A stretch of 64,000 nucleotides of DNA from Candidatus Heimdallarchaeum endolithica (lineage in GTDB: Archaea > Asgardarchaeota > Heimdallarchaeia > Heimdallarchaeales > Heimdallarchaeaceae). The stretch covers positions 1,088,001-1,152,000 of the forward strand of contig CP084167.1 of assembly GCA_021513715.1 (NCBI GenBank). Direction: 5' to 3'. The notes under the pieces were generated by a model. The model ran no database searches. It was not told the DNA's origin and worked only from the letters and a program-made list of their open reading frames with translations. Below, in pieces: positions 35,642-53,343 of the stretch. Both the position numbers and the translations under genes were made by a program. Within the stretch, counting starts at the first letter, position 1, and each line of letters opens with the position of its first letter.

Positions 35642-35862
35642 CATGAGTTGAAATTTTACGTAATTTCTTCAGGACTCTCCCCAACCAACCAACAAACTTA
35701 GCGAAAGTTGTGAAGACTGGCTTAAGAGAACATGAAAGACACAGTCTCAATTAAGTTCTCAAAGGGGTTCATCTCCTTATCCCGGGAACTCATAACTCCC
35801 AAAGGGAAAACCGGGTGTCGTGGGAATGAAACCTACGTCTTTAAGCATATAGCTCAAGACAC
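35642..35862 (-). ncRNA. Putative structured RNA (omega-RNA-like) within copy A
   Basis: Same TATA box and stem architecture as copy B. Confidence 0.55.
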
Positions 35863-36016
35863 TAGATAAATGAGAATTAAATATATAAAGATAGCTGAAA
35901 AGTTGTTACACTCCCCAATATTTTGTATTTTTTATTTAAGCAAATGTGTTTCAGGTTGTTATTGGTCTAATAACTCCACAAACTAAAAATTTAGTTTTTT
36001 ACGTAAAAAAGTATCT
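35646..36016 (-). mobile_element. 371-bp non-coding mini-element, copy A, flanked by CATG/CATG
   Basis: Near-identical (about 7 substitutions by eye) inverted copy at 41111-41481; removal restores the Smr ORF; subterminal TTACGTAA palindromes at both ends. Confidence 0.9.
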
Positions 36017-37392
36017 CATGGTTACAAGAGGGGAAGAGTTCTAAAAGACTATTTCAAGTCGGATTCTTTTCTTAAGGAAACAAGAAAATTGGGATGTGAA
36101 CTAATATACGAAAATGATGATATTTTCTTAAATCCAGGTAGAACTAGTTATTTAATTCGATTCATAAATGGGAATGAAGAAAAGAAATCGATTCTATCAA
36201 AAGAATGGATAGGTTTTATTGCCCATAAAGAATCCGAACAAAAGACAGAAAAAGATTTTCAACAAGGCTTCTATTATATTAAAGAAGAGACACAATTTTG
36301 TGATGAAGAAGAATCAATATTGATGAGTGATAAAGAAGATGATGAACTAGAAGAAGAATACACTCTTTTCACAGATGAAAATGAACAAAAGAGAGAAGAC
36401 CAAAATAATTATGAATTCCTCAGCATCACAGTGCCTGAACGAGAGTACACGATTGATAATATTTCTCCTAAAGATAATATTGCTGATTTAATTCACGGAT
36501 TCAGATTGCGAATTCCAGAATACTCTAGTTATGATTTATTACTAGGGTTAACTTATCAGGGTTCTGGAGATCTAACACTTCGAATTTGTAAATATAATTT
36601 CTATAATCAAATGATTCTACCTAAAGATAATATTGATTTTATTAAATCTGATAAAAAATTGCATTATATACATGATTTTGCAGAGGGGTTAGAAAAAATA
36701 ATTGACAATTTTGCAACTCTTAATAAGATTAAACAAAATAAAGAAAGAAAAGTCTTAAATTCAAGTTTAAGAACAGGAACAAGTTGTTATCTTGTGTACT
36801 CCCTCTGCTATTATAAAGATAATAGACATATTGGAATAGCTTTTTATCCAATCGACAATAAAACAATTTTTCGAATCTTTAGGGTAGATCTTCCTTATTC
36901 AGCTCAATATGAAGTAAATATAAGAACAGATCATTATGGAGGGCACAAATGTATAGACATCTCTATACAAGGATTAAACTACAAAAAATTTATCATAAGT
37001 TTTAAAGAACTGTTTATGAAAATTCTTGAATATTTGGATGAAACAGATACATTATTTATACTTTGAGTTTGGAAAACATTCTTTAAATTGGAAAAAAGTA
37101 TTACCTCTCACGTGTCTGATTTGTTATATCAAACTTGCGATCGCAATATATACCTTTTTCGTGGTCCCTTTGCTCCAGTAAATTGATAGAATACAGGTTT
37201 GTAACTAAGACAAAGAAGAAGATAATACAAAATCATCACACCATAGACTTTCTTGTAAGATAAGCCGTAACAAAACAGCAAAGTGCATTATTATAAGGGC
37301 ATCTAAACATTTCGATAGAAATTAGTATATAGTATAAAACAAAAAGTTAAATAATAAAGCAAACATAGACTACGTCTAAAGGCTTGAAACAA

Positions 37393-40963: not shown

Positions 40964-41110
40964 GGAATTATATGTTTTTCATTATTTTGCAAGTTGATAA
41001 CCCTTCTTGTAAGGAGGTTCTAACTAGAAGAAGACCTTAAGGCAAGATAGAGTAAATTTATTGTTGATTTCATATTTTTCTTCTAATTTCTTGAAGAATT
41101 AATATCCATA

Positions 41111-41481
41111 AGATACTTTTTTACGTAAAAAACTAAATTTTTAGTTTGTGGAGTTATTAGACCAATAACAACCTGAAACACATTTGCTTAAATAAAAAAT
41201 ACAAAATATTGGGGAGTGTAACAACTTTTCAGCTATCTTTATATATTTAATTCTCATTTGTCTAGTGTCTTGAGCTATATGCTTAAAGACGTAGGTTTCA
41301 TTCCTACGACACCCGGTTTTCCCTTTGGGAGTTATGAGTTCCCGGGATAAGGAGATGAACCCCTTGGAGAACTTAGTTAAGACTGTGTCTTTCATGTTCT
41401 CTTAAGTCAGTCTTCACAACTTTCGCTAAGTTTGTTGGTTGGTTGGGTAGAGTCCTGAAGAAATTACGTAAAATTTCAACT
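41111..41481 (+). mobile_element. 371-bp non-coding mini-element, copy B, flanked by CATA/CATG
   Basis: Inverted near-identical copy of 35646-36016. Confidence 0.9.
41238..41245 (+). promoter_or_regulatory. TATA box driving the element RNA
   Basis: TTTATATA about 20 nt before the first stem (G41265); identical in both copies. Confidence 0.55.
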
Positions 41482-41485
41482 CATG
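41265..41485 (+). ncRNA. Putative omega-RNA-like structured RNA (about 220-nt scaffold plus flank-derived guide)
   Basis: Stems GTGTC/GACAC, GTAGG/CCTAC, CCCGG/CCGGG, AACTTAG/CTAAGTT and AAGACTG/CAGTCTT; loop TATGAGTT is complementary to the terminal AACTCATG. Confidence 0.6.
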
Positions 41486-50098: not shown

Positions 50099-50723
50099 CG
50101 TGTGTAGAACATTATTTTTTTGAAAGGTTTTTTGATTTTCTTTTTAGAGGTAGTACTTCCGCAATAAGTTGACCGATTTCTATAGGTTAAAATTATAGGA
50201 GTTCATACTATCATTGTCGTGTTCTCAATTCATACTTTTTGAGATAATTCGGAAGTACTATTAGAGGGGAGAAAAAAATAAAAACAACTTTAAATTTTTG
50301 AAACAGATGAACAATGAGAATTATCTAATCGAACAGTATAAGATGGAAGAAAAAGAGCACAAAAAAATAGCTGACTTACTTTCTGAATCTTTCTTATCAG
50401 ACCCTGCAGCTATTGATGAAGGAGCTTCTATTCTCTTTTCTGACAAAACGATAAAGTTAATTTTTGGTTCTCTAACTGTCAAGAAAAACTATTTTGTTAG
50501 AGCTGTTTACAAGAAAACAAATGAAATTGTAGGATTTTTGGGATTAATTCCTAGAGACTTCAGAATAAAGAAACAAACGTACAATTTCGCTATTCCTGCC
50601 TGGTTAGCTGTTCACCATCAACATAGAAGAAAGGGTTTAGCAAAAATGATGGGAGAAAAGATGTTAGAAATCGCACAAAAAGAATCTTTTGATGGAGGTT
50701 TTGCTTTATTTGAACCAGAGCAA

Positions 50724-50967
50724 CATGATTTACTTTTTGCGAAGTTTGTCGAACTTAGTCTTTCAAGAAAAAAACAAAGAAAGAGAATTGTCAGTTTCTT
50801 GAGAACTTAATCCTAACATACAATGAAAGAAGAAGGATTAAGGCAGACGTCATACACGAATCGTGGGAATCATAAAGAAGAAAAGAGTTGTAAGCTCTTT
50901 CTTCACTCCACGAGAGACAAAAAAGAAACAATTATCCCTAAAATAGAGAAATTATTTTTCTTTTTGT
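50724..50967 (-). ncRNA. Putative omega-RNA of the TnpB element
   Basis: 3' of tnpB up to the element end; stems UCGUGG/CCACGA, GAAGAAGAG/CUCUUUUUC, CUUAAUCCU/AGGAUUAAG and UCAAGAAA/UUUCUUGA; loop UAUGAUU is complementary to the terminal AAUCAUG. Confidence 0.65.
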
Positions 50968-52566
50968 CTACTGGGACTGCAACCAATGGCTGAGTCCTCG
51001 GCAAACAGTGTAGTGAGTAAGACTGAATTTTTGACCAGTAAAATAATCAGTAATAGTTGTAGTACGGGGACGAAAAAGATGACTAAGGAATTTACGAGCA
51101 ATATTTCTTGCCCCTGTCAAATCGGAGTGGAAGGTGTAATTGCAAATGGGACAGTGTACTAACCCTCTAACGGGACGAGAAACTTCTTTTCCACAACGGG
51201 AACAATGAGAAGATGTTCCTCTTTCGTCTAAAGTGAGAATGCGGTGAGATTCAAAACCTCTTAATATCAATGCTCGACGGAGAAGACCAAGAACTAAAGA
51301 AAAATTCCACTGGTGAAGTTTTCTACGAAAATAACGAGTACTTTTTTCTTTTCCTTTTTCTTTATCTTTTCTAACATTTTTGGGGTAACCTACGACGACG
51401 AAAAGGTCATACACTTTTGCATAACTCTCTATTGTCCGCACAACGTCGTTTATAAATTGGTGAATATAGGACCGTTTAACGTTTCTATATCTCCGACGGA
51501 GAAGACCGAGAAAACGATAAATTTGGTGTTTTTTACCCGACTGGTCATTTAAAGCCGCTTTCCTCTGAAGACGGGAAAGTTTGAGTTTATATCTATGATT
51601 GATTCTATTCCACTGTTTGGTATGCCAGAATTTTATTTCTTTAATAGTTAATTTCTTTTTGGGAGTTAGTAACACTCCTGCTGCAGGAATGTTTATCCCT
51701 AGATCTATTCCCAGCACAGCTGGAGGAAGAGAAGAAGAACTTTCTTTTTCAGGAGGATAGAAAGAAGGAGGAGGAAGAACTTTCAATTGGAAATACACCC
51801 ACCATTCACGTGTAGAACGTTTATATCTCAGTTCTAAACTTTTTATTTGTCCTTTCTTCAATTCTTTTTGATGGAAAGTGCTCATCTCTAAAGGTAACCA
51901 CAATCGTTGATGATACCTTGTCTTTCTTTTCCACGTGTCTAATGAGTCTCTTATTCCTACCCACCAACGAGAAATGGAGTTGTTTTTTTCTTTTGGTAAA
52001 TTAGTAAGAATAAATCTTTTTTTATTGATTAGTTGTCTTCGGGGTCTCTTTTTTGGAGGACGAGTGGCTTCAGGTCTATATCCTTGCTCGTACAGTTGTA
52101 CTGCTATATCTCTGCACTCTTGAAACTCATCGTGAGAACAATGGCGAAACATCTTTTTAAGGTCATGAGGAACAGTCTCTCTTCGCTCTTCTACTTTTTT
52201 TATCCTTGATGTTGTTAATGTTAGTTCATCTAACTTCCCTTTATGTACTCTTATTTCTCCGTTCTTTGTTTTCATACACAGTCTTCTTCTGTTGTGATGT
52301 ATAATTTTTACATACTTTTCTATTATCCTCGTGTCTCTCCCTGTTATTCTCCTTAATCTTTCCTTTTTTCTCCTCGTCAAAACTTCATTCTTTATTCTAA
52401 CTTTCAAAGTTTTGACTATCTTCTCCATCTTTTTTCCTCTTATTTTCCTTTTTCTTCTTCTTCTCTTCATTTATTTCTACTATTTTTTCTTATAAAAAGT
52501 CTCTTTTTTTTCTTTTTTTTAGTTTCTCATCCATACTCTCTATCCTAATGTTCGCAAAAAGTGAAA
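50728..52566 (-). mobile_element. 1839-bp TnpB-only element with terminal inverted repeats, flanked by CATG on both sides
   Basis: Ends atttACTTTTTGCGAA / TTCGCAAAAAGTgaaa; CATG at 50724-50727 and 52567-52570; excision restores the host ORF; no transposase gene. Confidence 0.9.
50968..52470 (-). CDS. tnpB: TnpB RNA-guided endonuclease with a rearranged RuvC-II
   Basis: RuvC-I LGIDLG; VVVGYP replaces the canonical V.EDL; alternative Glu in LDERGTSS; Zn finger CSRC..CPIC; RuvC-III HSDLTGARNI; TATA tttttataag about 20 nt upstream. Confidence 0.92.
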   Translation of the reverse strand: MKRRRRKRKIRGKKMEKIVKTLKVRIKNEVLTRRKKERLRRITGRDTRIIEKYVKIIHHNRRRLCMKTKNGEIRVHKGKLDELTLTTSRIKKVEERRETVPHDLKKMFRHCSHDEFQECRDIAVQLYEQGYRPEATRPPKKRPRRQLINKKRFILTNLPKEKNNSISRWWVGIRDSLDTWKRKTRYHQRLWLPLEMSTFHQKELKKGQIKSLELRYKRSTREWWVYFQLKVLPPPSFYPPEKESSSSLPPAVLGIDLGINIPAAGVLLTPKKKLTIKEIKFWHTKQWNRINHRYKLKLSRLQRKAALNDQSGKKHQIYRFLGLLRRRYRNVKRSYIHQFINDVVRTIESYAKVYDLFVVVGYPKNVRKDKEKGKEKSTRYFRRKLHQWNFSLVLGLLRRALILRGFESHRILTLDERGTSSHCSRCGKEVSRPVRGLVHCPICNYTFHSDLTGARNIARKFLSHLFRPRTTTITDYFTGQKFSLTHYTVCRGLSHWLQSQ

Positions 52567-53343
52567 CATGGAATTGATACAGCCTTATCAGTTGCTAAAG
52601 AAAAAAAACTTCAAGTTTTTCGACCATTTGAAACTAAAAAGTTTATCATTAGAGTTTTTGATTCTGAAAAGGTTGCCAGCGTTGTTAAACTTAAATTTTA
52701 CGAGAAATTATTTTTCAAATTAAAAGAAAAAAATAAGAAAATAAAGAATAGTGCTAATCTCAGACAATTTAGAAAAGAAGATATTCCAATTTTATTTGAT
52801 TTACTAGTAGATCTCACTAAAGATTATGAAGTATCAATAGAACCTAATTTTGAAGATTTTAAATGGGTATTAGAACAACCAGCAACTAATTGTATAATTT
52901 ATGAAAAAAGTGAAGAAATAAAGGGATTCATGCTTGCTTGGGAGTTCAAACTTGCAGATTTCGGAAATGCAATTCCTTTTGGTTGGATAGATATTATTCA
53001 CATAAAAAATCTATCTACATCAGAAGCTACAGATTTGAGTCTGTATCTATCTGAAACGAGTAATGCAAAAGGATGGTTGGGATTACAATCCCCATACATT
53101 CCTTATTATAAGTCTAAACCTTTACAAAAAGCTAACTTTGTTTTTTTCCCCAAAAAACTAAGTTTTGACATTATTTTACTTAGCAAAGTGAAAATACCTG
53201 GTAAGTTTAAAGCTGCTTACTTTGATTGGAGATGAACACTCATTTGAAAGAGAATAGAAGGAACTAATGAAAAAAATAGAGGTTAAAGATTTACATTTTT
53301 TCCAAAGGTTTAAAAATAATAAATTGTAAGGGATAATAGAAAA

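Follow-up and report, generated by a model that had tools for sequence, protein, structure and literature searches.

We analyzed a 64,000-nucleotide stretch of DNA (the window; positions 1,088,001 to 1,152,000 of contig CP084167.1) that is part of the 3,326,783-bp single-contig genome of Candidatus Heimdallarchaeum endolithica. Two circular Heimdallarchaeum genomes have been published (PMC8813620). An element of ~1.84 kb (window 50727-52567) interrupts a host gene in the window, and it is most probably a non-autonomous insertion sequence with tnpB as its only gene. The TnpB combines an alternative position of the RuvC-II glutamate (Ealt) with a D-Phi-G sequence at RuvC-I, and the published definition of a pro-Fanzor does not cover it. 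It appears to belong to a Heimdallarchaeaceae clade that has remoter relatives in Thorarchaeota, and the ends of the transposon fit neither IS200/IS605 nor IS607. The element had been singled out by an original prediction made from the letters of the DNA, which proposed a probable Asgard host; the names of the homologues (Ca. Heimdallarchaeum aukensis or Heimdallarchaeaceae) agree with this.

A TnpB with a relocated RuvC-II glutamate

The open reading frame (ORF) at 50968-52470 on the minus strand encodes 500 amino acids and begins MKRRRRKRKIRGKK. PF07282 (Cas12f1-like TNB zinc-ribbon domain) was the sole Pfam match to the protein, at 5e-9 and above the cut-off. A profile built from 21 members of the family matched PDB chains of Cas12f and TnpB at values from 5e-19 to 4e-17. 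The AlphaFold2 model (mean predicted local distance difference test score of 80; residues 1-14 disordered) matched Cas12f/TnpB structures in Foldseek with a probability of 1.00, the best matches including AsCas12f, ISFba1 TnpB, and ISDra2 TnpB. As in other TnpBs, a D-E-D triad is spread over the three motifs of a RuvC-like fold (D256, E416 at the alternative position, and D450), and a zinc finger (C423/C426/C440/C443) lies between RuvC-II and RuvC-III. The first three of these cysteines are invariant in the 21-sequence family alignment and C443 is nearly so. These results identify the product as a TnpB, an OMEGA-type (obligate mobile element-guided activity) protein with the TnpB/Cas12f fold that is presumably an active RNA-guided nuclease. 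Database homologues are 481-489 amino acids long. For the compact editor that had been suggested, the protein is not particularly small, with 486 amino acids from its conserved start compared with 408 in ISDra2 TnpB.

The original prediction correctly recognized that the canonical RuvC-II glutamate is replaced in VVVGYP (residues 358-363) and that a glutamate is present in DERGTS (residues 415-420), before the zinc finger. No sequence in the family alignment departs from D256, G361, E416, or D450. When the profile was aligned to AsCas12f, G361 fell on the catalytic glutamate of IQMEDL and E416 on the proline of DPQYTS. Because of these invariant residues and this alignment, the relocation of the glutamate is considered to be real and family-wide. 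E416 is six residues ahead of the zinc finger (E416-x6-C423xxC426) and 55 residues from G361, in keeping with TnpBs with a rearranged RuvC-II, in which an inert residue occupies the canonical position and a conserved alternative glutamate follows ~45-55 residues downstream. In the AlphaFold2 model strand 411-415 runs straight into E416, which fits the beta-5 position described previously (PMC10691335). The RuvC-II glutamate thus appears to have shifted from strand beta-4, where Gly361 now stands, to the end of beta-5.

Relocation of this glutamate has been published for many branches of TnpB. According to Altae-Tran et al. 2023 (PMC10691335), RuvC-II is rearranged in two major clades and in eight large branches, and in the largest rearranged branch (RIIr-5) glycine replaces the glutamate, with a compensating glutamate on beta-5 rather than beta-4, the placement seen in RuvX. 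The relocated glutamate was reported from multiple TnpB clades by Jiang et al. 2023 (PMC10530073), who named one monophyletic group 'TnpB2'. In that study the Ealt enzymes TvTnpB (Thermoplasma volcanium) and ApmFNuc were active nucleases, and the Ealt enzymes that were tested lacked collateral cleavage. Because the relocated glutamate is so widespread among TnpBs, it does not single out an ancestor of Fanzors. The contrary rule, that the relocation marks Fanzors and IS607-associated TnpBs, also fails locally. A TnpB linked to a Y1 transposase in the same genome (403 amino acids; VIGD...SEQYTS) has the Ealt arrangement, whereas the IS607-linked TnpB of sister genera (622 amino acids) has the canonical glutamate (KIERL) and a proline at the Ealt position.

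The arrangement in the Heimdallarchaeum protein appears to be the published 'Ealt + D-Phi-G' type (RIIr/TnpB2-like) rather than DPG + Ealt. Features shared with the RIIr, 'TnpB2', and 'Ealt + D-Phi-G' TnpBs are glycine in place of the canonical glutamate, a glutamate six residues before CxxC, D-Phi-G, a guide-RNA region beside the right end, and a prokaryotic host. The Heimdallarchaeum TnpB differs from them in its larger N-terminal half (486 amino acids in all, and ~580 at most in the Thorarchaeota relatives), in the restriction of Pfam recognition to PF07282, and in its residence in an element that is bounded by terminal inverted repeats (TIRs), has an AT core, and has no linked transposase.

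The placement of the protein was evaluated with a quick maximum-likelihood tree. The Asgard clade had a support of 100, and its sister, with a support of 93, was the Ealt TnpB that is linked to Y1 in the same genome. The Ealt sequences split from the 14 canonical-Glu sequences in a single change. Viral contigs yielded 18 distant TnpBs, which were used as outgroups. None of the 15 viral TnpBs with a readable zinc finger had the Ealt glutamate (13 had proline), and none was Fanzor-like. A tblastn search of a plasmid collection returned only four haloarchaeal TnpBs, at 21-23% identity, and was of no help in placing the clade.

Ends of the element and precise insertion at CATG

The 12-bp perfect inverted repeats and the CATG on both sides that had been proposed are present. 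The perfect 12-nt core lies within 20-nt arms (50724-50743 and 52551-52570) that are 90% complementary (18/20). The further description of a TIR-bounded element without a transposase also holds, as no transposase gene is present within it. The genome has 12 full-length copies of the element, and homology among them stops exactly at the CATG/TIR ends of the window copy. Sister copies have imperfect TIRs of ~31 bp, with matches of up to 23/30, and relative to them the window copy has lost 10 bp (AAAATTACGC) from its promoter-side TIR. Relatives with 57% protein identity in the same genome and 46% in another genus also have CATG-flanked inverted ends, of other sequence. Because such distant relatives keep ends of this kind with a different sequence, the inverted CATG ends are regarded as a trait of the lineage and not as chance.

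AT is invariant at both junctions in all 38 elements compared (12 and 10 TnpB copies and 16 of the mini-elements described below). The base outside AT varies, being C, A, or G in the left-end flank and G or A in the right-end flank. The base that follows AT at the right end behaves as flanking sequence because its G/A variation is independent of how closely the copies are related. Therefore, with AT invariant and the outer bases varying, a 2-bp AT core in a preferred C-AT-G fits the data. Target duplications of 4 bp (CATG) or 3 bp were ruled out since the AT register alone fits both junctions in every element.

Removal of the element and one CATG in silico restored an ORF of 366 amino acids for an N-myristoyltransferase-like protein of the GNAT (Gcn5-related N-acetyltransferase) type. 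This ORF is 49% identical to and colinear with an intact 367-amino-acid orthologue from another genus, and EPEQH|GID is conserved across the junction. The orthologue provides a natural empty site, CAACATGG, with a single CATG. In three other genomes the corresponding CATG carries no insertion. Each half of the interrupted host gene is still an open frame. The orthologue of the sister genome is also broken, in this case by an inversion of ~205 bp instead of an element, with its right breakpoint a few bases from the same CATG.

Predicted guide RNA and target motif

A structured RNA of ~185 nt would be encoded between the tnpB stop codon and the right end. In a consensus fold of 17 copies, which has 44 pairs, 97% of the cells were paired compared with 40-54% when the partners were slid, and 7 pairs had compensatory changes compared with 0-3 in controls. 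The outer helix draws on part of the right-end TIR. Because of this conserved fold with compensatory pairs, the RNA that had been proposed (50967-50705, minus strand) is a reasonable candidate. The predicted structured 3' RNA, which reaches the right end, is as expected of a TnpB element. An Rfam search of the element gave no family match. Immediately past the tnpB stop codon, at 50915-50969, is an imperfect 26-nt palindrome with 73% complementarity and a loop of 3 nt, which might act as a terminator or form the 5' portion of the RNA.

If the RNA reads through the right end into the flank, it would direct TnpB to cut CATG sites that are free of the element. Cutting of such empty sites would favor retention or homing of the element. 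The transposon-associated motif (TAM) would be approximately NCATG, and CCATG in the subfamily of the window copy. In the left-end flank, read in the tnpB orientation (window 52567-52575 and the corresponding sister sequences), C precedes CATG in all six subfamily-1 copies, and A or G does so in subfamily 2. The right-end flank has no such preference. The left-flank base may represent a subfamily-specific TAM (CCATG versus RCATG), a comparison that is post hoc and based on a small sample.

Copies, age, and selection

In addition to the 12 full-length copies the genome contains fragments of the element, and the closed sister genome has 14 TnpB matches. One possibility is that the window copy is a degenerating relic, a fossil insertion in which tnpB and the RNA no longer function. 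Several observations favor it: the nearest copy is 93.5% identical, with a synonymous divergence (dS) of 0.26; no pair of copies exceeds 96.9% identity in this genome (93.3% in the sister genome); tnpB is frameshifted in 4 of the 12 copies; and the window copy carries the 10-bp TIR deletion. However, its ORF is intact and retains every catalytic and zinc-binding residue, compensatory changes preserve the RNA helices, and the promoter-like TATA box is conserved. Furthermore, the ratio of nonsynonymous to synonymous divergence (dN/dS) is 0.13-0.20 among intact copies. The intact copies are under purifying selection, and this ratio suggests that the nuclease has been kept functional. We therefore consider a relic to be improbable. 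The same divergence between copies leaves the proposal that the element was recently mobile without support.

Two other families of the genome, 1.0-kb IS4/IS5-like and 1.0-kb IS3-like elements with ~22 copies each, have identical or near-identical Pfam-domain scores, in contrast to the TnpB elements, which have no near-identical copies. A gene-less mini-element of 379 bp is present at window 35642-36020 and 41107-41485, and the whole genome contains ~18 copies of it, which are 92-98% identical. Its junctions are likewise CAT(G/A), its inverted ends (AGATACTTTTTTACGTAA...) are related, and its core is structured and rich in GC. By appearance, it is a relative of the TnpB elements that carries the guide RNA only.

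Mode of mobility

The preferred interpretation is that the TnpB-only element moves, or moved, as double-stranded DNA, with an exchange or a staggered cut at AT that would be catalyzed by an enzyme encoded elsewhere. We also considered derivation from IS200/IS605 (an IS1341-type solo tnpB), with single-stranded DNA moved by a Y1 TnpA in trans and CATG serving as target or TAM. The sole Y1 tnpA of the genome lies beside an Ealt TnpB that is the nearest relative in the tree, and the flank preference is asymmetric, as would be expected of an IS605-type target: in all six subfamily-1 copies the C precedes CATG at the left end and not at the right. These are the observations that speak for the derivation, but we regard it as very unlikely. 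IS200/IS605 elements use a Y1 HUH TnpA that is their own or supplied in trans, and they have subterminal hairpins, no TIRs, and insertion sites 3' of a short motif, a pattern that does not describe the Heimdallarchaeum element. A Y1 TnpA was found in 4 of the 31 genomes of the family. The closed sister genome (14 TnpB matches) has none, nor does any of the 25 genomes of a genus with 13 TnpB carriers. Classical Y1 elements in related genomes have hairpin ends without TIRs or CATG, whereas the ends here are true inverted repeats and not direct hairpin repeats. The flank-like behavior of the right-end base after AT also argues against an IS200/IS605 origin. A mini-element abuts the single Y1 tnpA of the genome and deprives it of a normal start codon. 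This mini-element copy, at genome positions 925500-925884, is 86% identical.

IS607 elements combine a serine TnpA with TnpB and recombine between matching dinucleotides (GG in ISXfa1). The Heimdallarchaeum element resembles them in its precise insertion, in having the same dinucleotide at both junctions without a longer duplication, and in the location of tnpB and the RNA at the right end. However, no serine TnpA is next to tnpB. The IS607 TnpA (196 amino acids, MerR-like N-terminus) is absent from the element and from both Heimdallarchaeum genomes and is present in other genera. The IS607 elements that were examined lack TIRs or CATG ends, in contrast to the 20-31-bp TIRs and the AT core in C-AT-G found here. 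TnpBs linked to serine transposases have asymmetric ends (PMC10691335). The IS607 elements of sister genera have different ends and carry an unrelated TnpB with the canonical glutamate. In four genomes of the sister genera these elements consist of the 196-aa TnpA and a TnpB of 622-641 amino acids with an unusual RuvC-I (GVDINR), and ~75 nt separate the stop codon from the right end. Two resolvase-domain genes (at ~317 kb and ~406 kb of this genome), single-copy, conserved, and without a tnpB neighbor, are present in 29 of the 31 genomes. Their distribution speaks neither way because carriers and non-carriers of TnpB alike have both genes.

TnpBs in DDE transposons (DDE-1 to DDE-6; PMC10691335) share with this element symmetric inverted ends and a tnpB 3' end within ~250 bp of the element end. 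Like the solo TnpBs of that study (PMC10691335), the copies here were presumably moved in trans. However, the genome has no IS630-type DDE gene, and the IS4/IS5-like (TIR AAGCATGTCCAAAAATT) and IS3-like families were set aside as movers because their TIRs are unrelated. We know of no prokaryotic DDE family for which a 2-bp AT duplication is a signature. Asgard TnpBs associated with aCas1 (Cas1H-Asgard-1/-2; PMC10691335) resemble the present one in their host group and repeat-flanked loci, but none of the three Cas1 loci adjoins any TnpB copy that was examined, and the GTTCACTCA motif that follows a variable region downstream of those tnpBs is absent from the Heimdallarchaeum element. No longer, autonomous element with these ends is present in the genome; eight further sites resembling the right end are truncated remnants beside ordinary genes.

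Relationship to Fanzors

The original prediction regarded the protein as Fanzor-type and pro-Fanzor-like, which would make it a close prokaryotic relative or ancestor of the eukaryotic Fanzors in an Asgard archaeon. According to Yoon et al. 2023 (PMC10711439), the fingerprint of Fanzors is DPG at RuvC-I together with a glutamate six residues before the zinc finger (Ealt), a combination present in <1% of TnpB homologues. In that study the Ealt TnpBs comprised a D-Phi-G clade and a DPG clade, with Fanzors and pro-Fanzors in the latter, and pro-Fanzors were mostly (exclusively, according to the Discussion) cyanobacterial TnpBs that co-occur with IS607 TnpA. When the regular expressions of Yoon et al. 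were run on the window protein and 112 full-length homologues, the D{P}G...E-x6-CxxC expression matched the window protein and 108 of the homologues. The DPG + Ealt expression matched none of the 112, and the window protein reads D-L-G. The residue after the RuvC-I aspartate was L in 105 homologues, I in 2, M in 1, and F in 1.

A pro-Fanzor is therefore hard to reconcile with the published fingerprint, of which the protein has the Ealt part and not the DPG part, and we give this possibility very little credence. In its favor, the Ealt position exactly six residues before the zinc finger is as in Fanzors (PMC10711439), the TIR-bounded carrier resembles the double-stranded DNA transposons that carry many Fanzors (PMC10530073), the host is from the archaeal group nearest eukaryotes, and both the structural and the profile matches include the Fanzor ApmFz2 (PDB 9b0l). 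With Fanzor2 and the cyanobacterial pro-Fanzors the Heimdallarchaeum TnpB has in common the Ealt position, the zinc-finger spacing, and probably a double-stranded DNA mobility with a dinucleotide core. However, it differs from them in its archaeal host, in the absence of DPG and of a linked IS607 TnpA, and in an NLS-like (nuclear localization signal-like) N-terminus that is not conserved. Fanzors and pro-Fanzors are encoded either in an IS607 element with a serine TnpA (pro-Fanzor, Fanzor2) or in a eukaryotic or viral genome, unlike this TnpB. Its similarity to Fanzor2 in profile and fold is lower than that to canonical Cas12f/TnpB. ApmFz2 ranked 17th in Foldseek, its profile value of 1e-10 trailed the 5e-19 of canonical-Glu Cas12f, and no Fanzor1 chain was among the Foldseek or profile matches to the PDB. 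The nearest clusters in the ESM Atlas were archaeal and viral TnpBs and none was eukaryotic, which we treat as a lead only.

Weighed against these alternatives, the interpretation as a TnpB-only insertion sequence with an Ealt/D-Phi-G TnpB is favored, although several points count against it. No mobilizing enzyme was identified among the Y1, IS607 TnpA, Cas1, and DDE families checked. With its 10-bp TIR deletion, the window copy may no longer be mobile. We infer, rather than observe, the nuclease activity, the TAM, the guide, the role in homing, and the mode of transposition. The joining of the clade with the Y1-linked TnpB calls for caution because both are on long branches. The exclusion of Fanzors rests on the published fingerprint, and the tree was built with TnpBs other than Fanzors and pro-Fanzors.

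Start site, leader, and feature coordinates

Comparison of 22 copies from the two Heimdallarchaeum genomes places the conserved start, M(M/V)E(K/D)(I/V)V, at M15 of the window copy. Between the TATA-like box and this start is a purine-rich leader of 69-97 nt, and the indels by which it differs in length do not come in whole triplets. Only 2-3 of the 22 copies have an ATG upstream in the same frame (the window copy, a single sister copy, and a variant with a deletion). Thus, the ORF does read as 500 amino acids with a polybasic N-terminus, as the original prediction stated, but the 14-aa extension is not conserved. The NLS-like stretch appears to be a by-product of translating AAG/AGA/GAA-rich DNA. 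The TATA-like box is a putative promoter element.

Coordinates (window positions) of the features of the TnpB element and its insertion site
Feature	Position	Strand	Basis
tnpB coding sequence from conserved start M15, 486 amino acids	50968..52428	-	ORF, Pfam, alignment, profile, model
Catalytic codon D256	51703-51705	-	
Catalytic codon E416	51223-51225	-	
Catalytic codon D450	51121-51123	-	
Codon G361, replacing the canonical Glu	51388-51390	-	
Predicted omegaRNA scaffold, in 240-nt 3' non-coding region	50728..50911	-	17-copy consensus fold
Predicted guide template, flank just past right end	50704..50723	-	Analogy with TnpB/IS607 right-end element RNAs (reRNAs) that read through the right end (PMC10711439)
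Right-end TIR (CATG + ATTTACTTTTTGCGAAGTTTGTCGAAC)	50724..50754	.	12-copy alignment, inverted-repeat search, 23/30 TIR match in sister copies
CATG at right-end junction (tnpB orientation); AT alone invariant across the family	50724..50727	.	
Left-end TIR, shortened here by the 10-bp deletion; ends in CATG (52567-52570)	52541..52570	.	
Host gene 5' half (N-myristoyltransferase-like GNAT), ends ...FEPEQH at CATG	50298..50727	+	Pfam Acetyltransf_9, NMT; colinear orthologue
Host gene 3' half, reading CAT GGA ATT = H G I ...	52567..53235	+	
Purine-rich leader, in frame in the window copy, giving the 14-aa polybasic extension	52429..52470	-	22-copy comparison
TATA-like box TTTTATAA	52490..52497	-	Kept in all but one of 22 copies; 69 nt upstream of M15 here

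Implications

The weightiest claim that could be made for this element is that the archaeal lineage nearest eukaryotes contains an ancestor of Fanzors, but this claim finds no support in the diagnostic motif that has been published, and it is extremely unlikely that the Asgard clade is the actual source of Fanzors. A more tentative proposal, which we consider possible though rather doubtful, is that the Asgard-specific Ealt TnpBs are the cargo of a double-stranded, TIR-bounded type of transposon that exchanges at an AT core in C-AT-G, with a mover that is not Y1, IS607 TnpA, Cas1, or a recognizable DDE enzyme. This mover might be a transposase of a new kind, or else a serine recombinase conserved in the host and used in trans. 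If this is true, the element would be an archaeal parallel to the joining of Fanzors with cut-and-paste transposons. The mobilizing enzyme, once found, would represent a new mode of partnership between an RNA-guided nuclease and a transposon. Of use in any case is a well-defined TnpB family under purifying selection, whose catalytic glutamate is relocated, whose guide-RNA scaffold is defined, and whose TAM is likely of the CATG type.

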